Below, one piece after another: positions 3,095-52,932 of a DNA stretch of 64,000 bases. Each line of letters opens with the position of its first letter. Within the stretch, counting starts at the first letter, position 1. The notes under the pieces were generated by a model. It was not told where the DNA came from. It worked only from the letters and a program-made list of their open reading frames with translations, and did no database searches. A program made the translations under genes and the position numbers. This DNA comes from Nitrosopumilus sp. (GTDB lineage: Archaea > Thermoproteota > Nitrososphaeria > Nitrososphaerales > Nitrosopumilaceae), in contig OZ252243.1 in NCBI GenBank assembly GCA_965249555.1, positions 1,216,001-1,280,000 on the forward strand. The letters are read 5' to 3'.

Positions 3095-4023
3095 TGAGAC
3101 TTGGGCATAATGATTTACAAAAAAACCAAAACTTTTCTCTAACAACAAAGCATTCTTTTCACAATCCTTGGATTCTCACTTCCAATTACACAGTTACAAT
3201 ACACTGCCAACTGATACGCCAACACGCAAATCAGCACGAATGATTATATATTCTCAAATCCTTTCACTGGAACTGTTCTAATGCTAAACGTATCCTTGAT
3301 TATCTCAAAGGAACAAGATATGGAAAAATTCGTGAGCGGTTATACGTTCTAATGCTAAACGTATCCTTGATTATCTCAAAGAGTGCTTCAATTGATATTT
3401 TTCTCTGAGAATATAATTTCTGACCAACTGCTGAATTGTAAAACCCTATCAACTTTGTTCTGTCTGGTGTGCGTAGAATGATATTTTTTGACTGGACAGA
3501 TCAATCTCATGGCATTATTCTTAGTTGACTTGTATGGTTTGGAATCATCATATGCAGGATCTCACCATATACTATTCATCAATCCAGAAAGTGACTCTCA
3601 ATTTTTCATATGGCTTGCTATCATGAACATTTGCAGTAGTTACACATGGCAGATAATGGAACCAGTCTTCCTGCACTGCAACTCATGTGTAGTTTGTATC
3701 CATACGCCCAACCCTTTGATTTGGAGAATCCCCACCAGTGTGTTGTCACTTGGAATTCTTATCCATGACTTTACGATGTATAATTACATCATTAGAACAG
3801 CTGAATAGACATATGGCCGTCCCCGTCTCACTGCATTTTCATACAGATATAGTGTTCCAACCAGATACAAAACACCAACAAGAAATGACTCACATAGAAT
3901 ATTGCCAGGGATTTTTATTTGTAATCATTCCAATGAACAAAACATGATGAGATTCTTTGCTTTTTCTATTTGAATAATTTGAGAAATCGGTTAAAAATGA
4001 GAATTGATTATGCCCATGTCTCA
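3095..4023 (-). mobile_element. Decayed IS5/IS982-like DDE insertion sequence
   Basis: 17-bp TIRs TGAGACTTGGGCATAAT / ATTATGCCCATGTCTCA (1 mismatch). Minus-strand fragments GWAYGYKLH, DPAYDDS and RKISIEALFEIIK are broken by stops and frameshifts. Confidence 0.75.
3275..3381. repeat. Perfect 36-bp direct repeat flanking a unique 35-bp insert (repeat-spacer-repeat)
   Basis: GTTCTAATGCTAAACGTATCCTTGATTATCTCAAAG at 3275-3310 and 3346-3381; insert 3311-3345. Confidence 0.95.
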
Positions 4024-12070: not shown

Positions 12071-12177
12071 AACTAGTTCAAACTTTCCCTTTTTTCTTTT
12101 TTTGAATCCCACTTAACGATAGTTATGGACAATTTTTCCAGAAGTAATATCTAGTAGACCATTAACAATTAATTAAA

Positions 12178-13152: not shown

Positions 13153-13180
13153 TAATGCTACAACAAAAGAAAATTTACTG

Positions 13181-16100
13181 ATGTCCAAAGTGGCGATCTT
13201 CTTTTCGATAATACTGCTTTCCACTGTGGCGACAAATTCCTACGCATTTGTTCCTGGTGATATGGTCTTTGAAGAAAGTATGCCAAAACAAATTGAATTT
13301 GATTCAGGTATTGTTCAAATTGATTCTGACTTTTTTGCCGAAAGTAATTTCAAGCGGTATCTAGTTTTTGGAACAAACTCACAAGATTCTGATCTCTTAA
13401 AAAACAGTTCTTTGCATGGAATTCATTCTGATAGCGGATTTTTTTATGTAACTGTACTTTCAGAGAAGAATGCATCAAGTCTAGTCTCTCAAGGATATGA
13501 TGTAATTGAAGATTTTCAATTGGATTTTCATTCCACTGATGACCTAGATGACGCATCTAGAATTGCTCAGATATCTCGCTCTGATATTGCACAAAAAAAC
13601 TATGGTGTTACAGGAAATGGGACAACAATTGCAATTATAGATACTGGCGTTGATTTTTCCAATCCGGACATTCAACATTCTCTTGCCAGAGATGAGAAAA
13701 ATCATCCTATAATGCTTGATCCTGACGGTCAAGGAATTGTTTTAACAAATGCAACTTTTTTTGCATATATTGATGAAAATGAAATTATCAGAAATTATAG
13801 TAAACCTATTCCATCTCACATGACATCCTCAGCATATGTAACAAAACAAGGAGTTTTTCTAGATGTGTCCCAAGGTGGAAAGGGAAGTCAAATCTCAATT
13901 TACAATTCATTTTTTCCACAACTAGGTTCTTCAATAATTTTTAATGGAACTTTGGCTGATGATATGAAAATTGGTGATGATAACAGAAATTATATCAAAT
14001 CAAAAAGTGGTGTGTATCATCTTGGTATAATTTATCAAGGTGCTACACAAGGACCTTTGGCACAAATACAAGTTGTACCTGTATTGGTAGTTGATTCATT
14101 CATTTCTGGAGTTTATGATACTATAATTCCTGATATGAGTACTTCGTGGGAAGATTATACCCGGTTTGATCTGGAAGCAGATCAAGAACCAGAGTATGAT
14201 TTTGATTTTACTGATGAGAAACCAATTGTGCTAGGTAGTGGAAAAGAATTTCTTGTGTATGATTCAAACAATGACGGAAAAAATGATTATAGCGCGGGAA
14301 CATTTGGCGCACAAGTTTTGGATGTTTATGGGGTAATGCAAAATAAGACTGCAGACATTGATGATACGTTAAATGCAATTAATGGAACATTACTTCCTAC
14401 GCTAGATCCTGATGGCGAATTTTTTGGTTTGATGACTGATTTTGTGGGACATGGCACGTCCAGTGCCGCATCTATTACTTCAAGAGGACATGAAGTTTAT
14501 GACATCTATAACAGTACTGAGAGATTTACCATAACTGGTGTAGCTCCTGGTGCAAAGATTCTTCCTGTAAAGGCATTGTGGTTTGGCGATACAGTTTATG
14601 GATGGTTGTGGTCTGCTGGATTTGATAATGCAAAACATGATTGGAAATTTTCAGGAAAGACCAGAGTTGATATAATTTCAAACAGCTGGGGCGTATCTGC
14701 ATTTCCTTCCTTTAGGACATCTCCTGGAATGGATGCCCTCTCATTGATTCTTAGCGTACTTGTAACACCTCATTCCTTGGATGATGATTATCCCGGAGTA
14801 ACAATAGTTTCTAGTGCTGGAAACACTGGACATGGGTATGGAACAATAGGATTGCCAAGTGCATCACCCTTTGGAATTTCAGTTGGAGCAACCACTAATA
14901 ATGTATTTGTGGGTTATGGCCCATTCAAAGATCAACCCAGATTTGGAAACACGATATCTCATTACAATGATGTAGTTGATTTCTCTAGTAGGGGCCCCAG
15001 CTCTATTGGTGATCCAAAACCTGATTTGATGAGCATAGGTGCGTATGGATTTGCTCCGTCAAGTGTCTTAAAAATTAAAAAAGATTCAAAGGATGAATCC
15101 TTTTCTCTGTTTGGCGGGACCAGCATGGCAGCACCTATCGTATCTGGCAGTGCGGCAATTTTGATGGAAGGTATGAAAAACCAATCCCAAAACATTGATC
15201 CATTCACAATCAAAAATATTCTAATGTCTACTGCAACTGATCTGAAAAACGATCCATTTACTCAAGGATCCGGATTAGTTGATGTCTCTTCAGCTTTGGA
15301 TTATGTGAATGGAAGAGACGGATTGTTTATGGTATATAATGATGCATCATACCAGAACATCAAAAAAATTCTAGATTCCGCAATAGATAACGTGAATTCA
15401 ACTGCAATCGGATTTGAAAAATTCCAATTGCCTTCTAATTCTATACCCATGACTAGTTGGTTTGCAGGGCAATTACTTCCAGGTGAGAGAAGCTCTGCTA
15501 CTTTTACTATAGTTAATCCCTCTGAAAATGAAATCAAAATTAATGTGGTGCCAAAAAAATTATCGTTAATTGCTAAAAATGAGTTTAACGGAGTAACTGC
15601 TGTACATCAACAAGATTCAATACTTAACAAATCTGGAACCTATATTCCAAATTATGTTAAACTTTCAGATGTAAAACCCCATTTTTCCCTGGATGAATTT
15701 TTTGATGAGACAGATCCCATTCCTGATGATTCCTCATTGATGATACTTGATGTAAATTTTCCATTTGATTCATTCATGAATGATACTTTGGGCGTCTATG
15801 CCAGTGATATCAAAATCTCTTCTTTGTATATTTACGACTGGCTTGACAATAATAATGATACAAAAATTTCAAGTGATGAATTGTCCTTAGTGAATAGAGC
15901 CGGCTCTTGGGGGACTGTTCAAGAACTTAGAGTCACTGATCCGAATGAAAAATTTGAAGGAACCCCCCTAGTTGGGGTATATCCCGTCCCGACAAGATTT
16001 TCTTACTGGTTGGGCGATACAAATATGAATTCTACCTCGATGGATTACACATTATCTGCAAGTTATTACCAAAAAGAAAAATGGTCTGTAATCTGGCCTC

Positions 16101-16966
16101 AATCTCAAACAGTTACTGTACCCCCAAAAGATGCTGCTACAATTGATGTAACATTGATTGCACCAACTGATCTGCAAACTGGAGTCTATCAGGGATTTCT
16201 TACTTTTGAAGGAGAGAAACATTTGGTAAATGCTCCGGTATCTTTTGTAATAAAACAATTAGTTGATCAAAATGATTCTTTTGTAATTGTCAAAGGCAAA
16301 CAAAGCAATGATGTTCTTTATGGTAATGGATACATCAAAGGCGCATTTGATATGGCTAGCCGCTATATGGCAGGAGATTGGAGACAATATTATTTTGACA
16401 TCCAAGATGAATCAATTAATTCAGCAGCGGTTGAACTTTCATGGATTGCCGATGATACTAATCTGGCTGTCTTTGTAATGGATCCATCCGGGCAAATCGT
16501 CCAAACAAATGTTCCATCTGGAGTATTTGGTCATTTTCTAGGATGGCCCTCTCTTGACTGGTTGGGTAATTCTATCTTTAGTCAAGGTGGTGGATTTTTT
16601 CCTGTAAAAAATAAGGATGATACATCCACTGTTCTCTATGTTCCAATCAACCAAACCGGCACTTACACTCTTTTGACACACTCTACGTTGTTTGGAGGAA
16701 ATTCCACAACAGAACCCATTACACTTGCAGTAAAATTTACAAACATCTCCCCCCAAACTGAACAAGCAGAGACAGAGTTTGAATCAGATGATTCTATTTT
16801 AGAGAATGACTATGACACAATTTCTAAAACAAAAACTACTTTTGATGATTCTTTTCCAATAAATAACTCTGATTCATCTTTCAGTCTTGGAATTGTTATT
16901 GGACTAGTTGTTGGTGCTGCGATCGGAGTTGTTATCATATTCATCATTAGAATAAAACCTAACTAA
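13181..16966 (+). CDS. Membrane-anchored subtilisin-like S8 serine protease
   Basis: DTG, HGT, SAGN and GTSMA catalytic motifs; signal peptide from ATG 13181; C-terminal TM. Confidence 0.93.
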   Translation: MSKVAIFFSIILLSTVATNSYAFVPGDMVFEESMPKQIEFDSGIVQIDSDFFAESNFKRYLVFGTNSQDSDLLKNSSLHGIHSDSGFFYVTVLSEKNASSLVSQGYDVIEDFQLDFHSTDDLDDASRIAQISRSDIAQKNYGVTGNGTTIAIIDTGVDFSNPDIQHSLARDEKNHPIMLDPDGQGIVLTNATFFAYIDENEIIRNYSKPIPSHMTSSAYVTKQGVFLDVSQGGKGSQISIYNSFFPQLGSSIIFNGTLADDMKIGDDNRNYIKSKSGVYHLGIIYQGATQGPLAQIQVVPVLVVDSFISGVYDTIIPDMSTSWEDYTRFDLEADQEPEYDFDFTDEKPIVLGSGKEFLVYDSNNDGKNDYSAGTFGAQVLDVYGVMQNKTADIDDTLNAINGTLLPTLDPDGEFFGLMTDFVGHGTSSAASITSRGHEVYDIYNSTERFTITGVAPGAKILPVKALWFGDTVYGWLWSAGFDNAKHDWKFSGKTRVDIISNSWGVSAFPSFRTSPGMDALSLILSVLVTPHSLDDDYPGVTIVSSAGNTGHGYGTIGLPSASPFGISVGATTNNVFVGYGPFKDQPRFGNTISHYNDVVDFSSRGPSSIGDPKPDLMSIGAYGFAPSSVLKIKKDSKDESFSLFGGTSMAAPIVSGSAAILMEGMKNQSQNIDPFTIKNILMSTATDLKNDPFTQGSGLVDVSSALDYVNGRDGLFMVYNDASYQNIKKILDSAIDNVNSTAIGFEKFQLPSNSIPMTSWFAGQLLPGERSSATFTIVNPSENEIKINVVPKKLSLIAKNEFNGVTAVHQQDSILNKSGTYIPNYVKLSDVKPHFSLDEFFDETDPIPDDSSLMILDVNFPFDSFMNDTLGVYASDIKISSLYIYDWLDNNNDTKISSDELSLVNRAGSWGTVQELRVTDPNEKFEGTPLVGVYPVPTRFSYWLGDTNMNSTSMDYTLSASYYQKEKWSVIWPQSQTVTVPPKDAATIDVTLIAPTDLQTGVYQGFLTFEGEKHLVNAPVSFVIKQLVDQNDSFVIVKGKQSNDVLYGNGYIKGAFDMASRYMAGDWRQYYFDIQDESINSAAVELSWIADDTNLAVFVMDPSGQIVQTNVPSGVFGHFLGWPSLDWLGNSIFSQGGGFFPVKNKDDTSTVLYVPINQTGTYTLLTHSTLFGGNSTTEPITLAVKFTNISPQTEQAETEFESDDSILENDYDTISKTKTTFDDSFPINNSDSSFSLGIVIGLVVGAAIGVVIIFIIRIKPN

Positions 16967-17011
16967 TAGTTGAACAAGGTTTATAAGCAATTTGGCGAGT
17001 TAGTCAGCTGA

Positions 17012-17617
17012 ATGTCAGAGCTTGGGACAAAAAAGTCTGGCGGATTATCCAGAAGAGACTTTCTAAAGTTAATCGGCGCCGCAGGCACAGGTTTAGCGTT
17101 TGCTCCATTTATTCCGTTTGGTAATTTTATGCCAAACCCCAATCAGGCGTCCCTTGAAAAAGTACCAGTAATTTTACCTGATGGCACACATGCAAATATC
17201 AATACTTATCCGGTTAATTTTTCTGAAGTTATTACATATCCAGCTACTGGTGATCCTGCACTTGATGCAGAAGCATTTCGTAAATGGCAATTCATAAGAT
17301 TACCTGAAGAATTAGGTGGTGCAAAAAATGACCTATCTGCCCTCAGAATATACAGCATGATATGTCTTCATCTTTGGTGTTTGTGGAAATATTGGCCAGA
17401 TGAGGGAAGAAAGAGAGGTGAGTGTCCCTGTCATGGCAGTATGTATGATCCAACTACTGGAACAGCTTTTGTAGGCCCTGCATCAGTGCAAGCCCCGCCA
17501 TCTAACACTCTAGCTGAATTATATTTTGAATTTGACTCGGATGGATTTGTATATATCTTGCCGCCAAAGTTTGATGTAAATGCTAATGGAGTAATTGGAT
17601 ATGGCCGTTTCGCTTGA
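17012..17617 (+). CDS. petC: Rieske 2Fe-2S protein of complex III (Tat signal)
   Basis: SRRDFLK, CLHLWC, CPCHGS. Confidence 0.93.
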   Translation: MSELGTKKSGGLSRRDFLKLIGAAGTGLAFAPFIPFGNFMPNPNQASLEKVPVILPDGTHANINTYPVNFSEVITYPATGDPALDAEAFRKWQFIRLPEELGGAKNDLSALRIYSMICLHLWCLWKYWPDEGRKRGECPCHGSMYDPTTGTAFVGPASVQAPPSNTLAELYFEFDSDGFVYILPPKFDVNANGVIGYGRFA

Positions 17618-19172
17618 AAGAAGAACCGGCCTAGTCGCCCTCATTTACTGGGTATGGGATGGGATAGATAGAACAATCTTTACTGCAATAAAGTTTTCAT
17701 TCCCTGCTAGATTTGTTAGTCCGTTTGGATTCTTGGGCATGCTTACCTTTGTTGTATTTATCATTCTTGGGGTTTCAGGAGCTCTGCTCATGTTTTATTA
17801 CCAACCCATTTTGGATAGGGCCTGGGATAGCGTCCAATTCATCAATGATGATGTTCCATTTGGTTTCCACATAAGAAACATTCACTATCATGGCTCCAAT
17901 GCAATGGTACTCTTGGCTGTTCTTCACATGTATTACCAATACTTTAGTGGACGATACAAGATCAGAAATGAGGTTTTATGGATGACTGGTGTCATTCTCG
18001 GCGTTGTTACTATTCTTGAAGCATTTACTGGATATGATGTTATATTTAGTGAAAGAGCAGAACTTGCAATTAGTATTGCGGCGTCTCTGACTACGTCAAT
18101 TCCTGTTGTCGGACCGACGATTCGCGATGCGGCACTTGGTAGTGGGTTCTCGGACTTTGTATTGAGATTCTATGCGCAACATGTGTTCTTGCTACCAATT
18201 GTAATGCTAGGATTGATGGCAGTTCATTTCCCAAGATTCTTGGTATTTGATGTTCCTATGGTTATGGCAATTTCTGGCGCTATTCTCATCACAGGTGGCG
18301 TGTTTCCAATTGATCTGGGATTCAAGTTTGAGCCGACAGTCCCGCCGGGTGTAACGGTTCCTGAATGGTATCTTACAGGAATTTATGCATTCATGAGGAC
18401 TCAATATGACAAGTTTGTAACAGGACTGCTGTGGCCGTTGGTATTTCTTGCCGCATTTATTGTTGTTCCGTTCATTGATAGATACAAAAAATTCTCATGG
18501 AGGGAAAGACCGATAGTTACAGCATTTGGAATTACCAGTATCGCTCAGATTATGGTTACCACATATTGGGGATTCTATATTTCACCTGATGTCTCAATTC
18601 CATTAGTAGAGCGTTTGGTAATTGATCCAATATTCTTCTATGCTACAATGATATTGCTGCTTCCACTGGGATTTGGATTCACATATATGATGATTAAACT
18701 TGCAAATGAGGCTGAAAGAAAATCAAAACTTGCAAAAAGTAAAGGTCCACAGAAAGTTGCCACAATCAACCTATCTGAAAAATGGATTAACTGGCTACTA
18801 ATTGCACTGTTGGCATTCCAAGTATTCCTAAACATTGCAGCATATAATGCAGCTTTGACAGGAATGAAGAACATGTCATTGTTCTTTGTTGGAATAATCT
18901 TGTTGGTATTTGCAGCATTCTTCCATGTTTACAGATATGCTTTGAGTGAGGAAAAGAATGCACCGCCACCTCCGCCAGTTCCAGTACAGGAAGAAAAACC
19001 AAGACTAGATGCACCCAAATCTGAACCAAGTAAGCTTCCAGATGACACTGCACAAGAAAAACCAAAAGAATTAACTCAAAAAGTTCCTACACAGACTCGG
19101 GCAGATTTGGGAGTTGGTGCAGAAAACAATCCTAATCTTGGTTCTGATGATCTTGAGGGATTGAAGAAATGA
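17601..19172 (+). CDS. petB: Cytochrome b of complex III
   Basis: Heme-ligand histidines (RNIHYH, VLHM), PEWY motif, many TM helices. Confidence 0.93.
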   Translation: MAVSLERRTGLVALIYWVWDGIDRTIFTAIKFSFPARFVSPFGFLGMLTFVVFIILGVSGALLMFYYQPILDRAWDSVQFINDDVPFGFHIRNIHYHGSNAMVLLAVLHMYYQYFSGRYKIRNEVLWMTGVILGVVTILEAFTGYDVIFSERAELAISIAASLTTSIPVVGPTIRDAALGSGFSDFVLRFYAQHVFLLPIVMLGLMAVHFPRFLVFDVPMVMAISGAILITGGVFPIDLGFKFEPTVPPGVTVPEWYLTGIYAFMRTQYDKFVTGLLWPLVFLAAFIVVPFIDRYKKFSWRERPIVTAFGITSIAQIMVTTYWGFYISPDVSIPLVERLVIDPIFFYATMILLLPLGFGFTYMMIKLANEAERKSKLAKSKGPQKVATINLSEKWINWLLIALLAFQVFLNIAAYNAALTGMKNMSLFFVGIILLVFAAFFHVYRYALSEEKNAPPPPPVPVQEEKPRLDAPKSEPSKLPDDTAQEKPKELTQKVPTQTRADLGVGAENNPNLGSDDLEGLKK

Positions 19173-19630
19173 GTGCACCTACATCAAGCCACGCGTATGG
19201 TATAGGAGTAATTGCACTAATCATCGGCATGTCAGTCTCCATAGTGTTTTACACTTCATTTTATATTCCTGAATCTCTGGCAAAGCCATCTGTATCTGAA
19301 CATATCCTAAATCCTGAAAAAGATCTTATCATTGAAATTGTTCCAGGTGCAGTAATTGAAGGAAACGAGAATTATGTTCCAAATAAAGCAAATGCGTTAT
19401 TGAATATTAATAACAAAGTAATTTGGAAAAATTTGGATGATACTCCCCACACTGTAACTCCTGATCATAGAGCATCTGATAGCTATAGTGGTGACTTTGG
19501 TTCTTCTGGTGTCCTAAAACCTGGTGAAGACTATGAATTCCTATTTACAGAGCCTCAAGAGATCCATTATCACTGTGAACCACATCCGTGGATGACTGGT
19601 TCTATCAATGTAGAAAAGAGTAGGTTCTAG
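19169..19630 (+). CDS. Membrane-anchored blue (type 1) copper protein, plastocyanin-like
   Basis: PHTVT and YHCEPHPWM copper ligands; in an operon with Rieske and cytochrome b. Confidence 0.9.
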   Translation: MSAPTSSHAYGIGVIALIIGMSVSIVFYTSFYIPESLAKPSVSEHILNPEKDLIIEIVPGAVIEGNENYVPNKANALLNINNKVIWKNLDDTPHTVTPDHRASDSYSGDFGSSGVLKPGEDYEFLFTEPQEIHYHCEPHPWMTGSINVEKSRF

Positions 19631-19977
19631 ATAGAATATTTTGCAAAAATTATTTGACTTTCAATTTCTTTGTGTTGCTCAATAATTGACACTCTAAATT
19701 TTATTTCATGTTCTTGTTTTGGTTCAAATTTTATTAATGCAATAAATTCTGCCTTGTTTTCAGGCATCACATCTTTGTTAATAAATAATCTTGAGACATT
19801 TTGTGAAATATTTTTTCCATTATATGATTTGTATGTTATGTGTTCATTTGAATCCAAAATTTGAGTATTTATCACAACTCCATCATATCTTCCAGGATAT
19901 GAAACAGAAATTGCCCCCTTAATTTCGGAATTTGGGTGAATGTCAGTTGAATTTAGTTTGAATTCTATATCTTTCAC
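19627..19977 (-). CDS. Hypothetical protein (beta-sandwich-like)
   Basis: 116-aa ORF convergent with the complex III operon. Confidence 0.7.
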   Translation of the reverse strand: MKDIEFKLNSTDIHPNSEIKGAISVSYPGRYDGVVINTQILDSNEHITYKSYNGKNISQNVSRLFINKDVMPENKAEFIALIKFEPKQEHEIKFRVSIIEQHKEIESQIIFAKYSI

Positions 19978-20200
19978 GAAAACATCATCTCCAAGTCAGA
20001 ATAAATAATTTTGTTAAGCGAGCCCGAAGGGCTTTTGAGCATTTTTATGAAAAGTCCCGGATTTCATTAATTTCAAACAATTACGATATTGGTATATTTC
20101 AAATATTAAAGAATATCTGCATCCGGTTCTGTTAACTTGACGGAGCTTGGATCATAATCTTTACACTGTTCAATCTTAGGATGTTTTCAACCAATCTCAA

Positions 20201-20242
20201 AGAGTGTTCATTTAGGGTGCTAGAGTGTTAAGTTAGGGTGCT
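20201..20242. repeat. 21-bp tandem repeat x2
   Basis: AGAGTGTTCATTTAGGGTGCT / AGAGTGTTAAGTTAGGGTGCT (2 mismatches). Confidence 0.85.
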
Positions 20243-20260
20243 GTAAATGGTAGTTTATGT

Positions 20261-20890
20261 TTATGAATCCCTTTTCTTAATTGCCTCTTTTTTTCCATCT
20301 GGCAAACTGTCAAAAATATCATCTATAATTTTTCCTCTGGTATGAGCCCAATCAGAAATATAATTTACAATCTCAAACAACTTGGTTGCTGTGTTTACAT
20401 CATCTCTCAAATCCATTTCTAAAGGGTGTACTGCTTGTCCACCAATCACTCTGACAGAATCTAACGCTTTTATCATTCTATCCTCTAGTCCTTGCTCTGC
20501 CAATTTTTTTATTTTTTCATTCAAATCTTTACCTGTCGCTTTTTTCTCATTACATATCTTTTCAATACACAATCTCAATAATACACACGCTGACCTTGGA
20601 GAACGTGAAATTATGTCTCGCGCTTCATTGTAATCAATTTTTATTTCATCAGTCATATCTGGGTTAGGCATTGGTGCATTACCTGTTGATGGATAAATCA
20701 TATTTTCTTCTTTCCAAATTGTAATGTCTCTACATCGTCTACAATGTCCAACCATGAAGTTATTAGCATTAACAGAATTTACATACTGACCTGTTCTTAT
20801 TACATTCGTCCAAGATTGATCAGAATATGATCCACAGTTTGGACAATGAAATGCATCTAGATTTACAGCAGGTTGAGTGAATTCAGTCAT
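20261..20890 (-). CDS. DUF4145-like (HEPN superfamily) protein with an N-terminal Zn ribbon
   Basis: CPNC/CRRC; YNEAR..SPRSACVLLRLCIE; RVIGGQAVH resembles the RxxGNxAxH motif. Confidence 0.8.
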   Translation of the reverse strand: MTEFTQPAVNLDAFHCPNCGSYSDQSWTNVIRTGQYVNSVNANNFMVGHCRRCRDITIWKEENMIYPSTGNAPMPNPDMTDEIKIDYNEARDIISRSPRSACVLLRLCIEKICNEKKATGKDLNEKIKKLAEQGLEDRMIKALDSVRVIGGQAVHPLEMDLRDDVNTATKLFEIVNYISDWAHTRGKIIDDIFDSLPDGKKEAIKKRDS

Positions 20891-20907
20891 AGTTTTATGA
20901 GAAAATT

Positions 20908-21501
20908 TTAATTCATTTTGTAATTATCATTCCAATAGTATATCCAATACTTCATTACTAATTGCATGATTCCAGCAGTTTGTATGATGTTCTTTGATCT
21001 TCGTTCTATTTTATTTTCTATTTCTTTTAATGAATTAAATATGGGATTTCCTTCTACTAATATTTCTTTTTGAAATTTCTTGATTTCATCTTCTGAGGCA
21101 AAATTAGAAGAGTAACTAATAAGATTAAAATTATGAAATTTTAGTTTAAACGGTTCCCATATTTTTAGAAAATTTTCTAAATCTTTTTTCTCATCAGTAA
21201 CATCATGATTTAACGATCTAAAATATTCTGTAAATATTTGAATCTTGTTAATTTTTAAATCCACATATTTTTCAAATCCCTCTTTTATTTTTTTAATAAT
21301 GTTGTCAAACTCTGGGATTATATTTGGTAATTGTTGTTTATTATGATTAGACATTATGACTTTGCTAATTAGTTGTAGTATTTCCAATGAACCATTTGTA
21401 ATCATTATCAATGCTTCACTATCTGGTTGATTGATACTATTGTTCATTTTTGATAATCTCATTATCACTGCTGCTGTATTAAATTGATTTGGCTCACTCA
21501 T
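20908..21501 (-). CDS. Hypothetical helical protein
   Basis: 197-aa ORF co-oriented with its neighbours. Confidence 0.65.
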   Translation of the reverse strand: MSEPNQFNTAAVIMRLSKMNNSINQPDSEALIMITNGSLEILQLISKVIMSNHNKQQLPNIIPEFDNIIKKIKEGFEKYVDLKINKIQIFTEYFRSLNHDVTDEKKDLENFLKIWEPFKLKFHNFNLISYSSNFASEDEIKKFQKEILVEGNPIFNSLKEIENKIERRSKNIIQTAGIMQLVMKYWIYYWNDNYKMN

Positions 21502-44751: not shown

Positions 44752-47190
44752 TTGAAAAATATCCATACTTTATCATTCCTAGTTTTGCTTTTAGCTACAT
44801 TAACGAGTATGCCTATAAACTACACTTTTGCTGCTGAGGACTTGGATAATGATGGTATTGACGATTCAGTTGATGCATGTCCAAATTTGCAAGAAGATCA
44901 TGTTGGCCCTGCTGATGGCTGTCCATCAGACTTTGTTCCATGGTATGATGAAGACTATGATGGAATACAAGATCATCTTGATCAATGTCCAAATATCAGA
45001 GAAAATTACAACGGCTTCCAAGACGATGACGGTTGCCCTGACACAATTTCTGAAGGTGGAGCAGGTGGATTACCAGATTCTGATGGTGATGGTTTTGTTG
45101 ACACGAAAGATTCATGTCCAAATCAACCAGAGACATTCAATGGTGTTTTAGATAGAGATGGTTGTCCAGATGATTTTGGTGCAGGTGACCGAGATTTAGA
45201 TGGAGTTCCAGATCCTGTAGATGCATGTCCACTGAGTGCAGAAAATTACAATAGATTCCAAGACGATGATGGATGTCCAGATTCTGTTCCAGGTTATTCT
45301 TTTGCTGATACAGATAATGATAGTATTCCAGATAACATTGATTTATGCATAAACGATCCAGAAGTGTATAATGGTTATCTTGATACAGACGGTTGCCCTG
45401 ATGTTCAATTAAATTCTTCATTTGATGATAAAGATGGTGACGGAATAGCAGATCAATTCGATATCTGTCCTAATAATGCAGAAACTTACAATAGATTTTC
45501 TGATTATGATGGCTGTCCAGATTCACTTCCATCGTTTACTGGTACATTAAATGATATAGATGGTGATAGAGTTATGGATGCTGATGATGCATGTCCTTTA
45601 GATCCTGAAAGATACAACGGCTTCCAAGACGATGACGGTTGTCCAGACATTCCTCCTTATTCTAGTGATACTGATTCAGACCTTGATGGAATTCCAAATA
45701 GTATTGATCAATGTCCACATGTGAAAGAAACTTACAATCGATATCAAGACGATGACGGTTGTCCAGACTTTCTTAGTGATGCTAGTGGAGTTCCAGACAC
45801 TGATGGTGATGGAATTAATGATTATGTAGATTTATGTCCAAACGAACCAGAAACATTCAATGGTATTTTAGATAGGGATGGCTGTCCAGATGAGTATTTC
45901 TCAAAGAATGATCGTGACTTGGATGGAATTCCTGATAATCTAGATCAATGTCCAACTGCTAAAGAAACTTACAATAGATTCCAAGACGATGACGGCTGCC
46001 CTGATACTATTTCTGAATTTTCAGAATCAGATTTTGATGGCGATAGAATTTCTGATTTGAAAGATAAATGTCCTCTCGAACCAGAAGTGTATAATAACTA
46101 TCAGGATACAGACGGTTGTCCAGATGTTCTAGTTTCAGATTCTGATAATGATGGAATCAGAGATACATTAGATCAATGTCCTACAGCTGCAGAAACTTGG
46201 AATAGATATCAAGACGATGACGGCTGCCCTGATAACCCGTCAGAATCTGATTCAGACTTTGATGGTATCTTAGATTCAGTGGATCAATGCCCTCTTGACA
46301 GAGAACGTTACAATGGCTTCCAAGACGAAGACGGCTGCCCAGATTATCCTGATTTTGTTACTACCTTTGATTCAGACTTTGATGGAATTCCTGACGAGTC
46401 AGATCAATGTCCATTAGTTCCAGAAACTTACAATAAATTCCAAGACGAAGACGGCTGCCCAGACCTTGTAGCAGATAATAAAGAAACTCCAGATACCGAC
46501 AATGATGGAATTAATGATTACAGAGATCACTGTCCAAACCAACCAGAAACATATAATGGAATTCTTGATTTAGACGGTTGTCCAGATGAGTATTTCTCAA
46601 AGAGTGATCGTGACTTGGATGGATTACCAGATGCTATTGATGTATGTCCAACTGCTAAAGAAACTTACAATAGATATCAAGACGATGACGGCTGCCCAGA
46701 TTTCATATCAGAATCATTTGTAGTTGACTCTGATAATGATGGCATTAATGACGTATATGATGATTGCCCTCTAGTTGCTGAAAACTATAATGGATTCCAA
46801 GACGATGACGGTTGCCCAGATGTTGATGACATTCAACCTGATTCTGATGGTGATGGTGTTTCAGATGTGATGGATATGTGTCCAGAACAAAACGAAACTT
46901 GGAATAGATATGTTGATTATGACGGTTGCCCTGATGTCGTGCCAACTGGAAATATTACAATTGATAGTGATGATGATGGCATAAATGATGAGATTGATTT
47001 ATGTCCAAATGAAAAAGAATCTTGGAACAAGTACAATGATCATGACGGCTGTCCTGACATTGCTCCAGAACAATCAAGATACAAACATGATGCTGATTTA
47101 GACAATATTATCAATGACTATGACTTGTGTCCTTTAGAACCAGAGGATTATGATGGTGATAGAGATACCGACGGCTGTCCAGACCCTTAG
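44752..47190 (+). CDS. Secreted thrombospondin type 3 repeat (Ca-binding) protein 1
   Basis: Signal peptide (likely TTG start 44752); ~20 DxDxDGIxDxxDxCP..E.YN..D.DGCPD units. Confidence 0.9.
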   Translation: MKNIHTLSFLVLLLATLTSMPINYTFAAEDLDNDGIDDSVDACPNLQEDHVGPADGCPSDFVPWYDEDYDGIQDHLDQCPNIRENYNGFQDDDGCPDTISEGGAGGLPDSDGDGFVDTKDSCPNQPETFNGVLDRDGCPDDFGAGDRDLDGVPDPVDACPLSAENYNRFQDDDGCPDSVPGYSFADTDNDSIPDNIDLCINDPEVYNGYLDTDGCPDVQLNSSFDDKDGDGIADQFDICPNNAETYNRFSDYDGCPDSLPSFTGTLNDIDGDRVMDADDACPLDPERYNGFQDDDGCPDIPPYSSDTDSDLDGIPNSIDQCPHVKETYNRYQDDDGCPDFLSDASGVPDTDGDGINDYVDLCPNEPETFNGILDRDGCPDEYFSKNDRDLDGIPDNLDQCPTAKETYNRFQDDDGCPDTISEFSESDFDGDRISDLKDKCPLEPEVYNNYQDTDGCPDVLVSDSDNDGIRDTLDQCPTAAETWNRYQDDDGCPDNPSESDSDFDGILDSVDQCPLDRERYNGFQDEDGCPDYPDFVTTFDSDFDGIPDESDQCPLVPETYNKFQDEDGCPDLVADNKETPDTDNDGINDYRDHCPNQPETYNGILDLDGCPDEYFSKSDRDLDGLPDAIDVCPTAKETYNRYQDDDGCPDFISESFVVDSDNDGINDVYDDCPLVAENYNGFQDDDGCPDVDDIQPDSDGDGVSDVMDMCPEQNETWNRYVDYDGCPDVVPTGNITIDSDDDGINDEIDLCPNEKESWNKYNDHDGCPDIAPEQSRYKHDADLDNIINDYDLCPLEPEDYDGDRDTDGCPDP

Positions 47191-47199
47191 TCTCGTAAA

Positions 47200-50100
47200 A
47201 TGAAAAAACAATATCTTTTAGGATTTTTGCTTTTACTTACTTCTACCATTGGTATGCTACCAGGTAGTGTTTATGCAACTGAAGTAATTGATTCTGATGG
47301 TGATGGAGTGCCAAATGATTTAGATCAATGTCCTAACCTTCTTGAAGATTATGACTCACAATATGGCACCAACATAGACGGCTGTCCTGCAGACTTTGTT
47401 CCATGGTATGATGCAGACTTTGATGGAATACAAGATCATCTAGATAACTGTCCAACTGTAAAGGAAACTTACAACAAATTCCAAGATGATGACGGCTGCC
47501 CTGATTTATCACCTGTTGATGGAAAAGGTATTGCTGATTCTGATGGTGATAATTATCCTGATTATCTGGATTTATGTCCAAATCAACCAGAGACATTCAA
47601 TGGCATTGATGACAAAGACGGTTGCCCTGATGATTTCGCTACTTTAACAGATAGTGATCAAGATGGCATTTCTGATACAATGGATGCATGTCCACTAGAA
47701 TCTGAAACTTACAATCTTTACTTAGATGAAGACGGCTGTCCAGATTCTGTTGATACAATAGATTCAACATACACTTTCCCAGATACTGATGGTGATGGAA
47801 TTGAAGATAGATGGGATGCATGTATTGATGAGCCTGAAAATTTCAATGGATTCCTAGACTCTGATGGTTGTCCAGATGTTGAGGGCACAACTGCAGATGC
47901 CATACTTGATGCTGATTATGACGGAATCCCAGATGATAGAGATGCTTGTCCCTTAGAGCGTGAGAATTACAATAAATTCCAAGACGAAGACGGTTGTCCT
48001 GATGAAATTGAATTTTCAACTATAGGTGATGCTGATGGTGATGGCATTGTAGATCCAAATGATTCTTGTCCTTTTAGTCCTGAAACTTATAATAAATTCC
48101 AAGACGATGACGGCTGCCCTGATTATGTAGCAGACAACAAACTTACTGCTGATACTGATGGTGATGGCATTGCAGATGTTTTAGACTTGTGTCCAAATCA
48201 ACCAGAAACATTCAATGGCATTGATGACAAAGATGGTTGTCCTGATAGCTTTGATTCTAAACTTGATTCTGATATGGATGGCATTATAGATACAATGGAT
48301 GCATGTCCACTAGAACCTGAAACTTACAATAGATTCCTAGATGACGATGGATGCCCTGACACTGCTGATTCCATTGTTTCATCTTACCTCTTCCCAGATA
48401 CTGATGGTGATGGAATTGAAGATAGATGGGATGCATGTATTGATGAGCCTGAAAATTTCAATGGATTCCTAGACTCTGATGGTTGTCCAGATGTTGAGGG
48501 CACAACTGCAGATGCCATACTTGATGCTGATTATGACGGAATCCAAGATCATTTAGATCAATGTCCAGCATTAGCTGAAAGATACAACGGATTCCAAGAT
48601 GAAGACGGATGTCCCGATGCTATTGATTATCAAACAGTCGGTGATACTGATGGTGATGGCATCTATGATGATGTAGATCAATGTCCAACTGCTAAAGAAA
48701 CTTACAATTTTTACTTGGATGGTGATGGCTGCCCTGATTATGTAGCAGACAACAAACTTTCTGCTGATACTGATGGTGATGGCATTGCAGATGTTTTAGA
48801 CTTGTGCCCAAATCAACCAGAAACATTCAATGGCATTGATGACAAAGATGGTTGTCCTGATAGCTTTGATTTTAAACTTGATTCTGATATGGATGGCATT
48901 ATAGATACAATGGATGCATGTCCACTAGAACCTGAAACTTACAATAGATTCCTAGATGACGATGGATGCCCTGACACTGCTGATTCCATTGTTTCATCTT
49001 ACCTCTTCCCAGATACTGATGGTGATGGAATTGAAGATAGATGGGATGCATGTATTGATGAGCCTGAAAATTTCAATGGATTCCTAGACTCTGATGGTTG
49101 TCCAGATGTTGAGGGCACAACTGCAGATGCTATACTTGATGCTGATTATGACGGAATCCCAGATGATAGAGATGCTTGTCCCTTAGAGCGTGAGAATTAT
49201 AATAGATATCTTGATGAAGACGGATGTCCCGATGCTATTGATTATCAAATAGTTGGTGATGCTGATGGTGATGGCATTGCAGATCCAAATGATTCTTGTC
49301 CTTTTAGTCCTGAAACTTATAATAAATTCCAAGACGATGACGGCTGCCCTGATTATGTAGCAGACAACAAACTTTCTGCTGATACTGATGGTGATGGCAT
49401 TGCAGATGTTTTAGACTTGTGTCCAAATCAACCAGAAACATTCAATGGCATTGATGACAAAGATGGTTGTCCTGATAGCTTTGATTCTAAACTTGATTCT
49501 GATATGGATGGCATTATAGATACAATGGATGCATGTCCACTAGAACCTGAAACTTACAATCTTTACTTAGATGAAGACGGCTGTCCAGATTCTGTTGATA
49601 CAATAGATTCAACATACACTTTCCCAGATACTGATGGTGATGGAATTGAAGATAGATGGGATGCATGTATTGATGAGCCTGAAAATTACAATGGATTCCT
49701 AGACTCTGATGGTTGTCCAGATGTTGAGGGCACAACTGCAGATGCTATACTTGATGCTGATTATGACGGAATCCAAGATCATTTAGATCAATGTCCAGCA
49801 TTAGCTGAAAGATACAACGGATTCCAAGATGAAGACGGATGTCCCGATGCTATTGATTATCAAACAGTCGGTGATACTGATGGTGATGGCATCTATGATG
49901 ATGTAGATGAATGTCCAACTGCTAAAGAAACTTACAATTTTTACTTGGATGGTGATGGCTGTCCTGATTATGTAGCAGACAACAAATTTACTGTTGATTC
50001 TGATGGCGACATGATTCCAGATGTTTTAGACTTGTGTCCAAATCAACCAGAGACATTCAATGGATTCCTAGATGGTGATGGTTGTCCTGATAGCTTTGAT

Positions 50101-50601
50101 TCTGTACTTGATTCTGATATGGATGGCATTATAGATACAATGGATGCATGTCCACTAGAACCTGAAACTTACAATCTTTACTTAGATGAAGACGGCTGTC
50201 CAGATTCTGTTGATACAATAGATTCAACATACACTTTCCCAGATACTGATGGTGATGGAATTGATGATAGATGGGATCAATGCTTAAACGAGCCTGAAAA
50301 TTATAATGGATTCCTAGACTCTGATGGCTGCCCAGATATCCTTGGTGCAGAATCAACCTCTCCTACATATGCTGATTCTGATGGTGATGGATATCCAGAT
50401 GTGACTGACTCTTGTCCAACAAGCCCAGAAACTTGGAATAAATATCTAGACTCTGATGGCTGCCCAGATACTGCTCCAGAACAAAAGAGATTTGCCCATG
50501 ATGATGATCTAGATGGCATCATTAATGATGAAGATTCATGTCCTCTTGATCCTGAAGATTATGATGGAGATAGAGACTCTGACGGCTGTCCAGATCCATA
50601 A
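47200..50601 (+). CDS. Secreted thrombospondin type 3 repeat protein 2
   Basis: Signal peptide MKKQYLLG; TSP3 units in a 615-bp higher-order repeat. Confidence 0.92.
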   Translation: MKKQYLLGFLLLLTSTIGMLPGSVYATEVIDSDGDGVPNDLDQCPNLLEDYDSQYGTNIDGCPADFVPWYDADFDGIQDHLDNCPTVKETYNKFQDDDGCPDLSPVDGKGIADSDGDNYPDYLDLCPNQPETFNGIDDKDGCPDDFATLTDSDQDGISDTMDACPLESETYNLYLDEDGCPDSVDTIDSTYTFPDTDGDGIEDRWDACIDEPENFNGFLDSDGCPDVEGTTADAILDADYDGIPDDRDACPLERENYNKFQDEDGCPDEIEFSTIGDADGDGIVDPNDSCPFSPETYNKFQDDDGCPDYVADNKLTADTDGDGIADVLDLCPNQPETFNGIDDKDGCPDSFDSKLDSDMDGIIDTMDACPLEPETYNRFLDDDGCPDTADSIVSSYLFPDTDGDGIEDRWDACIDEPENFNGFLDSDGCPDVEGTTADAILDADYDGIQDHLDQCPALAERYNGFQDEDGCPDAIDYQTVGDTDGDGIYDDVDQCPTAKETYNFYLDGDGCPDYVADNKLSADTDGDGIADVLDLCPNQPETFNGIDDKDGCPDSFDFKLDSDMDGIIDTMDACPLEPETYNRFLDDDGCPDTADSIVSSYLFPDTDGDGIEDRWDACIDEPENFNGFLDSDGCPDVEGTTADAILDADYDGIPDDRDACPLERENYNRYLDEDGCPDAIDYQIVGDADGDGIADPNDSCPFSPETYNKFQDDDGCPDYVADNKLSADTDGDGIADVLDLCPNQPETFNGIDDKDGCPDSFDSKLDSDMDGIIDTMDACPLEPETYNLYLDEDGCPDSVDTIDSTYTFPDTDGDGIEDRWDACIDEPENYNGFLDSDGCPDVEGTTADAILDADYDGIQDHLDQCPALAERYNGFQDEDGCPDAIDYQTVGDTDGDGIYDDVDECPTAKETYNFYLDGDGCPDYVADNKFTVDSDGDMIPDVLDLCPNQPETFNGFLDGDGCPDSFDSVLDSDMDGIIDTMDACPLEPETYNLYLDEDGCPDSVDTIDSTYTFPDTDGDGIDDRWDQCLNEPENYNGFLDSDGCPDILGAESTSPTYADSDGDGYPDVTDSCPTSPETWNKYLDSDGCPDTAPEQKRFAHDDDLDGIINDEDSCPLDPEDYDGDRDSDGCPDP
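47776..50340. repeat. 615-bp (205-aa) near-identical tandem repeat
   Basis: TTCCCAGATACTGATGGTGATGGAATTGA recurs at 47776, 48391, 49006, 49621 and 50236. Confidence 0.92.
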
Positions 50602-50688
50602 ACAATCTTTTTCTTGATTTTAAAATTATAGAAGAATCTATTTAACGTGAAACTTAATAAATACTTGATAATAGCGGAGTCAGAGAGA

Positions 50689-52932
50689 ATGAAAAAACAA
50701 TATCTTTTAGGATTTTTACTTTTACTTACCTCTACCGTTGGTATGTTACCAAGTAGCATATTTGCAACTGAAGGAATTGATTCTGATGGAGATGGAGTAC
50801 CAAACGCTCTTGATTTTTGCCCTAACCTTCTTGAAGATTATGACCCACAATATGGAAATGATATTGATGGCTGTCCTGCAGACTTTGTTCCATGGTATGA
50901 TGCAGACTTTGATGGAATACAAGATCATCTAGATAACTGTCCAACTGTAAAGGAAACTTACAATAGATTCCAAGATGAAGACGGCTGTCCTGATTTATCA
51001 CCTGTTGATGGAAAAGGTATTGCTGATTCTGATGGTGATAATTATCCTGATTATCTGGATTTATGTCCAAACCAACCAGAGACATTCAATGGCATTGATG
51101 ACAAAGACGGTTGCCCTGACGATGTCTTTATTTTAACAGATAGTGATCAAGATGGCATTTCTGATACAATGGATGCATGTCCACTAGAACCTGAAACTTA
51201 CAATCTTTACTTAGATGAAGACGGCTGTCCAGACTCTGTTGATACAATAGATTCAACATACACTTTCCCAGATACTGATGGTGATGGAATTGATGATAGA
51301 TGGGATCAATGCTTAAACGAGCCTGAAAATTACAATGGATTCCTAGATTGGGACGGATGTTTTGATGTATCTGGTGCAACATCTAATGCTTTGATTGATT
51401 CCGATTATGATAGCATTCCTGATTTTGTTGATGCTTGTCCATTAGACCGTGAAAATTACAATAAATTCCAAGATGAAGACGGTTGCCCTGATGAAATTGA
51501 ATTTTCAATTACAGGTGATTCTGATGGTGATGGTATTGCAGATATTTCTGATATGTGTCCTTATGCTAAAGAGACTTACAACAAATTCCAAGATGAAGAC
51601 GGTTGTCCTGATGCTATATACGACAATAAATTAACTGCTGATACTGATGGCGACCTAATTCCAGATGTTTTAGACTTGTGTCCAAACCAACCAGAGACAT
51701 TCAATGGATTCCTAGACTCTGATGGCTGTCCTGATAGCTTTGATTCTGTACTTGATTCTGATATAGATGGTATTGTAGATACAATGGATGCATGTCCACT
51801 AGAACCTGAAACTTACAACTTTTTCAAAGATGAAGACGGCTGTCCTGATGCCACTGGCTCTATCATTTTATCTCATCCCTTTGCAGATGTTGATGGTGAC
51901 GGTGTAGATGATAGATGGGATGCATGTCTTGATGAGCCAGAAAACTATAATGGTTATTTGGATTCTGATGGATGTCCTGATGTTCCAGGAATCTCAAAAT
52001 CTGCATTACCTGATTCTGATTATGATGAAATCCCAGATCATTTAGATCAATGTCCAACATTAGCTGAAAGATACAACGGATTCCAAGATGAAGATGGATG
52101 TCCTGATGCCTTAGCTTATGATTCCTTTGGAGATGCTGACTTTGATGGAGTTACTGATGATGTGGATGAATGTCCTTATGCCAGAGAAACTTACAACAAA
52201 TTCCAAGATGAAGACGGATGCCCTGATGCTATATACGACAATAAATTAACTGCTGATACTGATGGCGACCTAATTCCAGATGTTTTAGACTTGTGTCCAA
52301 ATCAACCAGAGACATTCAATGGCATTGATGACAAAGACGGTTGTCCTGATAAATTTGTATTTACACTTGATTCTGATGGTGATGGTATTGCAGATATTTC
52401 TGATGCATGTCCACTAGAACCTGAAACTTACAACTTTTATCAAGATGAAGACGGCTGTCCTGACTCAACTGATTCTATTACTCCATCTCACATCTGGGAT
52501 ACTGGATTCGGTATCGGCGCATGGACTGGTCCTGACTCAACTGATTCTATTACTCCATCTTACATCTTTGCAGATGTTGATACTGATGGTATAGATGATA
52601 GATGGGATGCATGTATTGGTGAGCAAGAGAACTTTAATGGATACTTGGATTGGGACGGTTGCCCAGATGTGTTAGCAGCAGAATCTACCATACCTACAAG
52701 TATTGACTCTGATGGTGATGGATATTATGATACCATTGATTCCTGTCCAACAAGCCCAGAAACATGGAACAAGTACAATGATCATGACGGCTGCCCAGAT
52801 ACTGCTCCAGAACAACAGAGATTTGCCCATGATGATGATCTAGATGGCATCATTAATGATGAAGATTCATGTCCTCTTGATCCTGAAGATTATGATGGAG
52901 ATAGAGACGATGACGGCTGTCCAGATAACTAA
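50689..52932 (+). CDS. Secreted thrombospondin type 3 repeat protein 3
   Basis: ATG 50689, signal peptide nearly identical to protein 2; contains a 24-aa in-frame insertion. Confidence 0.92.
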   Translation: MKKQYLLGFLLLLTSTVGMLPSSIFATEGIDSDGDGVPNALDFCPNLLEDYDPQYGNDIDGCPADFVPWYDADFDGIQDHLDNCPTVKETYNRFQDEDGCPDLSPVDGKGIADSDGDNYPDYLDLCPNQPETFNGIDDKDGCPDDVFILTDSDQDGISDTMDACPLEPETYNLYLDEDGCPDSVDTIDSTYTFPDTDGDGIDDRWDQCLNEPENYNGFLDWDGCFDVSGATSNALIDSDYDSIPDFVDACPLDRENYNKFQDEDGCPDEIEFSITGDSDGDGIADISDMCPYAKETYNKFQDEDGCPDAIYDNKLTADTDGDLIPDVLDLCPNQPETFNGFLDSDGCPDSFDSVLDSDIDGIVDTMDACPLEPETYNFFKDEDGCPDATGSIILSHPFADVDGDGVDDRWDACLDEPENYNGYLDSDGCPDVPGISKSALPDSDYDEIPDHLDQCPTLAERYNGFQDEDGCPDALAYDSFGDADFDGVTDDVDECPYARETYNKFQDEDGCPDAIYDNKLTADTDGDLIPDVLDLCPNQPETFNGIDDKDGCPDKFVFTLDSDGDGIADISDACPLEPETYNFYQDEDGCPDSTDSITPSHIWDTGFGIGAWTGPDSTDSITPSYIFADVDTDGIDDRWDACIGEQENFNGYLDWDGCPDVLAAESTIPTSIDSDGDGYYDTIDSCPTSPETWNKYNDHDGCPDTAPEQQRFAHDDDLDGIINDEDSCPLDPEDYDGDRDDDGCPDN
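52457..52567. repeat. 37-39-bp direct repeat flanking a unique 33-35-bp insert (period 72)
   Basis: GTCCTGACTCAACTGATTCTATTACTCCATCTyACATCT at 52457-52495 and 52529-52567 (1 mismatch). Confidence 0.93.

Follow-up and report, generated by a model that had tools for sequence, protein, structure and literature searches.

We analyzed a 64,000-nt stretch of DNA (hereafter the window) from a Nitrosopumilus species, whose genome (G000) is assembled as a single closed contig (C1) of 2,230,439 bases with 34.4% G+C; since this genome encodes an archaeal AmoA, the organism is an ammonia-oxidizing archaeon. Our subject is an insertion scar inside a gene of the window that codes for a thrombospondin type 3 (TSP3) repeat protein. 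The encoded protein belongs to the Pfam family TSP_3 (PF02412; E = 2.3 × 10−32, 110.8 bits against a cut-off of 25). Its gene is part of a tract (45186-52932) with at least three neighboring regions made of TSP3 repeats, and its signal-peptide region is nearly identical to that of the adjacent TSP3 open reading frame (ORF). The features discussed below are listed in Table 1, where coordinates with the prefix C1 refer to the contig and all others to the window.

Table 1. Location of the scar, its host gene, the candidate integrase loci and related structures. Paired figures such as 43/29 give the lengths of duplication and insert in nt.
Feature	Location	Strand	Details
Left target copy	52457..52495	+	39 nt is the maximal identical stretch, true duplication 36-39 nt; derived C at 52489
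Insert (spacer)	52496..52528	+	33 nt, up to 36 nt counting flanking nt (1 left, 2 right)
Right target copy	52529..52567	+	ancestral sequence
Host gene, TSP3 repeat protein	50647..52932	+	761 aa, hydrophobic N-terminus
TSP3-repeat ORFs near the scar	47200..50601; 50647..52932		1133 aa; 761 aa; further repeats from 45186 onward
Scar #1	3275..3381	+	36-nt perfect duplication (3275-3310, 3346-3381), spacing 71, 35-nt insert
Type I-G CRISPR-Cas locus	C1:632963-645770		outside the window, 620 kb from the scar
Type I-B-like adaptation genes	C1:1613967-1617000		IS1595-family transposase between cas4 and cas1; IS66 transposases flank
Mini-array	C1:1884690-1884801		two I-G repeats and one 34-nt spacer, 1.24 Mb from the main array
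Scar with tRNA-derived insert	C1:2050963-2051070		donor C1:601743-601780
Period-64 scar	C1:1840225-1840317		29-nt duplication, 35-nt insert
Solo repeats with longer inserts	C1:46341-46459; C1:82220-82340		30/59, period 89; 34/53, period 87
Scar-like repeats of relative G007	C1:517108-517222; 660163-660272 (in G007)		43/29; 38/34; both period 72

The scar consists of a 39-nt direct repeat with a single mismatch (C/T, at 52489/52561), the two copies of which are spaced 72 nt from start to start and enclose an insert of 33 nt. The insert is markedly richer in G+C than the repeat (0.58 versus 0.41). A near-perfect repeat of 39 nt is far beyond chance. The initial annotation of this DNA had described a 37-39 bp duplication with one mismatch around a GC-richer insert, with a period of 72 here as against 71 for another structure of the window (scar #1), and both descriptions proved accurate, the two copies in scar #1 being 100% identical. 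Its claim of 24 residues added in frame also stands: the scar contributes 24 in-frame codons to the linker between two calcium-binding repeats, where the protein reads ..PDSTDSITPSHIW DTGFGIGAWTG PDSTDSITPSYIF.., and the frame is open across it, measuring 766 codons from stop to stop with the scar and 742 without it. While the flanks are 97% identical to each other, the insert is unrelated to its surroundings. As the annotation had also held, the insert is absent from the paralogous units: one such unit within the host gene (51842-51880, 69% identical) lacks it, and a genome-wide search recovered no match in any TSP3 paralog.

Comparison with relatives reveals the state of the site before the insertion. 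The region is matched in 22 of 24 relatives from the same genus, and in all 11 orthologous loci examined the site is empty—there is a single copy of the 39-nt target, the flanks overlap and the insert is missing, which is the outcome that the ortholog check proposed in the annotation had called for. The closest relative has a T at the variable position, as does the right-hand copy, and the C in the left copy is therefore derived.

The source of the insert could be traced within the same chromosome. A whole-genome search with the insert found only itself and one other place, C1:1099183-1099218, which is identical at 34 of 36 nt and lies 169 kb upstream of the scar, outside the window. This donor site falls within a 520-aa ORF for an ammonium transporter (Amt; Pfam Ammonium_transp, E = 3 × 10−111), and donor and insert share both strand and reading frame, the sequence being ..PHVWDTGDGIGAWTGTPE.. 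in Amt and ..SHIWDTGFGIGAWTGPDS.. in the TSP3 protein at the scar. Thus, a 12-residue Amt peptide, reading WDTG(D>F)GIGAWTG, now lies in frame inside a secreted calcium-binding TSP3 protein. Among 30 Amt orthologs of the genus, the ATC-GGC synonymous pattern seen in the insert is found only in G000 and its closest relative, for which reason we take the donor to be the Amt gene of this very lineage. The GAC (Asp) codon is invariant in all 30 of these orthologs; therefore, the TTC found in its place (a GA>TT change) arose within the scar. The annotation had viewed the insert as foreign, and this part of it has to be abandoned in light of the match to the organism's own Amt gene with the synonymous codons of the lineage. 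The insert edges and the donor flanks have 1 nt (T) and 2 nt (GT) in common, and the donor is preceded by TTT. Elsewhere, two 37-nt Amt matches in genome G066 were rejected as scars because they lie at contig ends and represent assembly overlaps; a 44-nt match in G021 belongs to an Amt-like paralog.

The genome contains two Cas1 genes, settling in the affirmative the question of Cas1 presence that the annotation had posed. Both are located within CRISPR loci, and no casposase-type solo Cas1 was found in the genome. The first of them belongs to a complete type I-G locus (Csb1/Cas7g, Csb2, Cas3g, Cas8g1/Csx17, array, Cas2 and Cas4g/Cas1g), with a Cas4/Cas1 fusion and Cas2 on one side of the array and Cas8g1/Csx17, Cas3g, Csb2 and Csb1/Cas7g on the other. 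The fusion (561 aa) covers the full profile of NCBIfam cas4g_cas1g (NF049935; 731 bits) and aligns end to end with the solved Cas4/1 of Geobacter sulfurreducens (7mi4; E = 3 × 10−160), with conservation of D87 and K102 in the Cas4 part and E380 in the Cas1 part, i.e., residues mutated by Almendros et al.; the adjoining Cas2 has 115 aa. Judged by profile coverage and the conserved catalytic residues, the locus encodes an intact Cas1 together with a Cas2. The array of this locus comprises 48 repeats, each 36 nt long and separated by spacers of 35-44 nt (mode 37-38); its period is 71-80 (mode 73-74). The locus sits between nuoB and nuoC and thereby splits the NADH dehydrogenase cluster, separating nuoA/B from nuoC/D/H. 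Outside the array, the I-G repeat occurs only at C1:1884690 and 1884763, which together form the mini-array of Table 1, and an orphan scar (C1:1882077) lies 2.6 kb from it. The second Cas1 accompanies a type I-B-like array of 61 repeats of 30 nt with a period of 65-71. Here, the adaptation genes are interrupted by transposases (Table 1), the Cas1 match begins only at position 33 of the profile, and no cas2 was seen at the locus. A lone copy of the 30-nt repeat is present at C1:1334754.

We then scanned the chromosome for comparable structures, taking direct repeats of 26 nt or more that occur as two copies with a spacing of 30-400 nt and have no third copy. This yielded 149 solo repeats, whose periods show a striking peak: 16 of them fall at 70-74, compared to 3 and 2 in the adjoining 5-nt bins. 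A period that is a multiple of three may reflect an ordinary protein repeat, and the other periods were accordingly examined separately. Among the latter, 9 of 14 are at 70-74 (one of these being the I-G mini-array at C1:1884690), while one is at 64 and four are scattered at 89, 109, 242 and 368. Filtering of the 31 solo repeats with a period of 55-95 retained 17 scars of period 69-75, in which the maximal duplication measures 28-39 nt (median 36) and the inserts, all different, are 32-43 nt long. The genome-wide count suggested by the annotation has thus brought to light many further scars of similar size. Ten rows (#8, 16-19, 26-30) were dropped as low-complexity, AT-rich or tandem protein repeats, two (#4, #5) for long inserts of 53 and 59 nt and one (#22) as a mini-array of true I-G repeats; row #20, the period-64 scar, was counted apart from the 17.

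The inserts of these scars differ from the spacers of the arrays in one telling respect. In 6 of the 17 scars, the insert is copied from elsewhere in the chromosome, with 4 of these copies being 100% identical. When the period-64 scar is included, 7 of 18 orphan scars have self-derived inserts as against none of the 107 spacers in the two real arrays (Fisher p = 4 × 10−7). This is what would be expected if self spacers were lethal in a functional array and harmless between unprocessed pseudo-repeats, the harmlessness following from a presumed lack of CRISPR RNA (crRNA) processing there. The insert of scar #1 is identical at 35 of 35 nt to C1:965252-965286; its junctions have no microhomology to the donor flanks, and its host sequence is non-coding or a short frame. 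In another scar (C1:2050963-2051070), the insert is a copy of part of a tRNA gene, namely its 3′ half. The period-64 scar, with its 29-nt duplication, fits the system with the 30-nt repeat, and its insert finds about 25 matches across the genome, which are copies of a short multicopy element. Exact matching of three donor-less orphan inserts to viral contigs, a weak test, gave no hits.

Empty alleles are not confined to the TSP3 gene. The locus of scar #1 is empty in all three relatives that have it, and at the site of scar S202366 the relatives are shorter by about 69-72 nt, consistent with an empty allele. No ortholog was found for such a comparison at S95142, and at S2050963 the flanks are too divergent to judge the allele, its tRNA donor being found in 5 of 5 relatives searched.

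With respect to genes, the distribution of the scars points to a filter by selection and speaks for the integration reading set out below. All 7 scars in open frames of at least 244 codons have periods that are multiples of three (69, 72 or 75), whereas all 8 with other periods lie in a short frame or in none. In silico removal of three scars lengthens the frames at their sites (from 83 to 232, 175 to 214 and 0 to 123 codons), a hint that the insertions disrupted genes. The I-G array has three of the 17 scars no more than 25 kb away, including one inside its leader. Three in-frame scar-like repeats (C1:16547, 18809 and 19053; periods 75, 72 and 75) are crowded within 2.6 kb of a giant minus-strand frame of over 4500 codons that extends at least from 7548 to 21293, and a fourth scar (C1:23778) lies 4.6 kb beyond this group; the cluster may be a hot spot or may consist in part of ordinary protein repeats. 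The two solo repeats with longer inserts (Table 1) likewise carry inserts that match other places in the genome, and they fit the geometry of neither array. No orphan scar has a third unit, and three multi-copy families of period 55-95 outside the arrays, considered as new arrays, proved to be protein tandem repeats. The seeding of new arrays envisaged in the annotation thus finds no example in this genome.

The pattern recurs beyond G000. Of 80 further genomes of the genus, 6 encode a full-length ortholog of the Cas4/1 fusion (7 of 81 including G000), and in all three Cas4/1-bearing relatives checked the same family of 36-nt repeats stands beside the fusion. In G055, where the fusion is the only Cas1, the first 400 kb of 2.39 Mb contain 5 scars with periods of 72, 73, 73, 72 and 73; none of three scar inserts tested has a second copy in that genome. 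The first 400 kb of G091 contain 3 scars (periods 73, 72 and 73), and both of its solo repeats with periods other than multiples of three are at 73. In the first 400 kb of G009, there are 8 scars with periods of 71-75, and 6 of 7 solo repeats that are not multiples of three are at 71-74. In half of these 8 scars the duplication measures 33 nt; three of the four combine it with an insert of 38 nt (period 71) and the remaining one with an insert of 40 nt (period 73). The closest relative of the genome under study, G007, serves as a control, having neither a Cas1 nor such a repeat: the first 800 kb of its 1.88 Mb yield 11 solo repeats of period 55-95, all of them multiples of three, and 9 of the 11 are recognizable as protein or low-complexity repeats.

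Taken together, we consider it very probable that the scar in the TSP3 gene is the product of off-target (ectopic) spacer integration by the type I-G Cas4/1-Cas2. This organism's own complex would be the catalyst. In the proposed course of events, the adaptation complex would capture a fragment of the Amt gene as a prespacer, and its two Cas1 active sites would attack the TSP3 gene at points about 36 bp apart, one on each strand, in the same reaction that the complex normally carries out at either end of a CRISPR repeat; repair of the gaps would then duplicate the intervening target. Since the added length of 72 nt is a multiple of three and the fragment happened to arrive in the sense orientation and in phase, translation continues in the original frame and the protein is longer by 24 residues. 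This preservation of the frame may be attributed in part to luck, the chance of a suitable orientation and frame of the insert being about 1 in 6, and in part to selection, as only stop-free insertions with lengths that are multiples of three would survive in a needed gene. The one T>C in the left copy and the GA>TT in the insert would be changes that followed the insertion. Because the flanking repeats are not CRISPR repeats, there would presumably be no crRNA processing and hence no autoimmunity from the self spacer.

Several observations fit this account. The duplication of 36-39 nt corresponds to the 36-nt I-G repeat and its target is single-copy in 11 of 11 relatives, and the insert is a copy of an identifiable protospacer, matching Amt at 34 of 36 nt. 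Its length of 33-36 nt overlaps with that of the array spacers (35-44 nt) only at the upper bound. The proposal of the initial annotation that a Cas1-type integrase with a fixed ruler is at work is thus well supported by the I-G system, the scars across the genome, their donors, the empty alleles and the three further genomes; none of the outcomes that it had named as speaking against it (a conserved loop, a match to a TSP3 paralog, a lineage without Cas1 or a dearth of further scars) was encountered. Two other forms of insertion were considered and rejected, namely a canonical CRISPR array unit, as the flanking repeats have no similarity to either array repeat, and a casposon or other transposon, as the scar inserts are only 32-43 nt long and all different and both Cas1 genes lie in CRISPR loci.

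There are, nevertheless, observations that weigh against integration by the I-G complex. First, the targets bear no likeness to the I-G repeat in either orientation, their mean best identity being 14.2 of 36 as compared to 14.1 for random 42-mers. Second, the geometry departs from that of the array: the mean period is 71.9 in the orphan scars and 74.1 in the array (Mann–Whitney p = 3 × 10−4), and the maximal duplications range over 28-39 nt, with several of 33 nt in G009. Given that the array repeat of G009 measures 36 nt, these last suggest a shorter off-target stagger, and it seems that the stagger is slightly shorter or looser than 36 in general. Third, TTN, reported as the I-G protospacer-adjacent motif (PAM) in G. 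sulfurreducens and possibly not that of this system, stands in front of just 3 of the 6 donors (as TTT in the present case), no more often than chance would give; none of the 107 canonical spacers matches the genome, so that they yield no PAM for the system itself. Fourth, 11 of the 17 scars are without a donor, and 6 of these are in-frame repeats in long ORFs that could be ordinary protein repeats. Fifth, no scar has grown into a new array. Finally, the Cas1-less G007 has two scar-like repeats in its 800 kb, both of period 72, which could be relics of a lost system or the product of another process.

Among the competing explanations, template switching during replication or repair (microhomology-mediated, of the type of fork stalling and template switching/microhomology-mediated break-induced replication, FoSTeS/MMBIR) would have synthesis proceed through the 39 nt of the TSP3 gene, pass to about 35 nt of Amt and then return upstream. 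Such a process accounts well for an insert whose template lies far away on the same chromosome, for the 1 nt and 2 nt shared between its junctions and the donor flanks, and for targets that lack a repeat-like motif. We regard it as unlikely, because a process without a ruler predicts neither 17 events confined to a period of 69-75 with inserts of 32-43 nt, nor the recurrence of these figures in three other I-G genomes, nor the absence from the 800 kb of G007 of scars that are not multiples of three; moreover, scar #1 has no junction microhomology. That a different integrase made the scar, either the second Cas1 of the type I-B locus with its 30-nt repeat or an unrecognized enzyme, is in our estimation quite unlikely. 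A second Cas1 is indeed present, and the period-64 scar at C1:1840225 with its 29-nt duplication comes close to the I-B array period of 65-71, but the duplication in the TSP3 gene is of 36-39 nt rather than about 30, the I-B adaptation genes are broken by insertion sequences with no cas2 seen beside them, G055 has scars with the Cas4/1 fusion as its only Cas1, and no solo Cas1 of the casposase type was found.

The gene itself, being built of repeats and adjacent to TSP3 paralogs, invites an explanation as an ordinary feature, i.e., an old loop, slippage or a diverged tandem duplication, or recombination with a TSP3 paralog. This is highly unlikely given a site that is empty in 11 of 11 orthologs, near-identical flanks around an unrelated interior, and an insert that matches Amt and no paralog; in particular, a tandem duplication by slippage was rejected because the gene that supplied the interior is 169 kb distant. 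An artefact of assembly or sequencing is barely credible: although assemblers can be confused by short repeats, the assembly is a single closed contig, and an identical 100-nt unitig (52459-52558) crosses both junctions with zero differences in three of the four public runs compared; these three come from 2 studies and may include the source of the assembly. None of the four runs has a contig that skips the 72 nt, though contigs drop rare variants and this does not imply absence of the empty allele from the population.

Beyond the single scar, one might see in Cas4/1-Cas2 an endogenous, chronic mutagen of the I-G-bearing marine ammonia-oxidizing archaea. Taken whole, this broader proposition is in our judgment evenly balanced between being right and wrong. 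If true, the fixed scars would constitute an unfiltered record of the DNA captured by the adaptation machinery, and the proportion of self inserts among them, over one third as against none in the arrays, would be a direct natural measure of the autoimmune purge. Out-of-frame events would knock out genes, and in-frame events would graft peptides from one protein to another, with the Amt-to-TSP3 graft representing a previously undescribed route to protein innovation. The cost of such a mutagen may also help explain why the module is kept in only 7 of the 81 genomes of the genus that were searched. With some 17 fixed events in one closed archaeal genome, and with a pattern that recurs in three other species with a homologous module, several questions become amenable to testing: at what frequency CRISPR adaptation harms its own host, what naive uptake looks like before the autoimmunity filter (7 of 18 self-derived versus 0 of 107 in arrays), how tight the ruler of the integrase is without a real repeat, and whether new arrays originate by off-target integration, of which there is no case here.

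Several known systems resemble the one outlined here to differing degrees. Casposons leave target duplications of about 14-15 bp, much shorter than those in G000. They are kilobase-sized elements with terminal inverted repeats, unlike the scars described here, which have inserts of 32-43 nt that are all different in a genome with no solo Cas1. In the accessible text of one report, a family 1 casposase from a Nitrosopumilus species integrates casposons; the parallels with our case are a Cas1-family integrase, the same archaeal group and duplications of the target site (PMC8464041). Off-target integration of spacers in vitro is described for Cas1-Cas2 of Pyrococcus furiosus, where the sites, according to the portions consulted, shared sequence features with the repeat (PMC6698737), whereas the targets in G000 show none.

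The type I-G (formerly I-U) Cas4/Cas1-Cas2 modules that have been studied are those of G. sulfurreducens and Methanosarcina barkeri, the former with a TTN PAM and a predominant 36-bp spacer (PMC6547450, PMC10504553). Integration by this type is reported to begin with an attack on the leader side followed by one on the spacer side, the latter with a fidelity of 60-70% (PMC10504553). As far as the accessible parts of these sources extend, the module in G000 is like them in having a fused Cas4g/Cas1g with the conserved D87/K102/E380, an adjacent Cas2 and spacers of about 36 nt; they place integration at the leader-repeat junction, and chromosomal off-target scars are not mentioned in those parts (PMC6547450, PMC10504553).

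Within the literature covered, with most subscription journals and supplements lying outside it, we found no report of natural off-target scars, including in ammonia-oxidizing archaea, and none of in-frame peptide grafts made by off-target integration. The closest precedent is the “neo-CRISPR” work of 2018, in which Nivala, Shipman and Church reportedly obtained off-target spacer integration with repeat-length duplications in Escherichia coli by overproducing the type I-E Cas1-Cas2. This line of work is cited in PMC6698737, PMC7054753 and a preprint (bioRxiv 10.1101/148544), and in the available text of the latter the natural evidence so far is termed “circumstantial” and comes from two species. 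To the extent that these partial sources describe it, neo-CRISPR formation shares with the TSP3 scar a spacer-sized insert at a non-CRISPR site and a flanking duplication of about repeat length, made in that case by Cas1-Cas2; it differs in that E. coli had overexpressed Cas1-Cas2 and supplied oligonucleotides, whereas the events reported here are natural. They also took place in an ammonia-oxidizing archaeon, whose type I-G system has a Cas4/1 fusion and a ruler of some 36 bp, and comprise many fixed events per genome, over one third of them with self-derived inserts and some lying in frame within genes. Thus, the scar in the TSP3 gene is a natural and well-supported case of an already known type of event rather than a new type of event.

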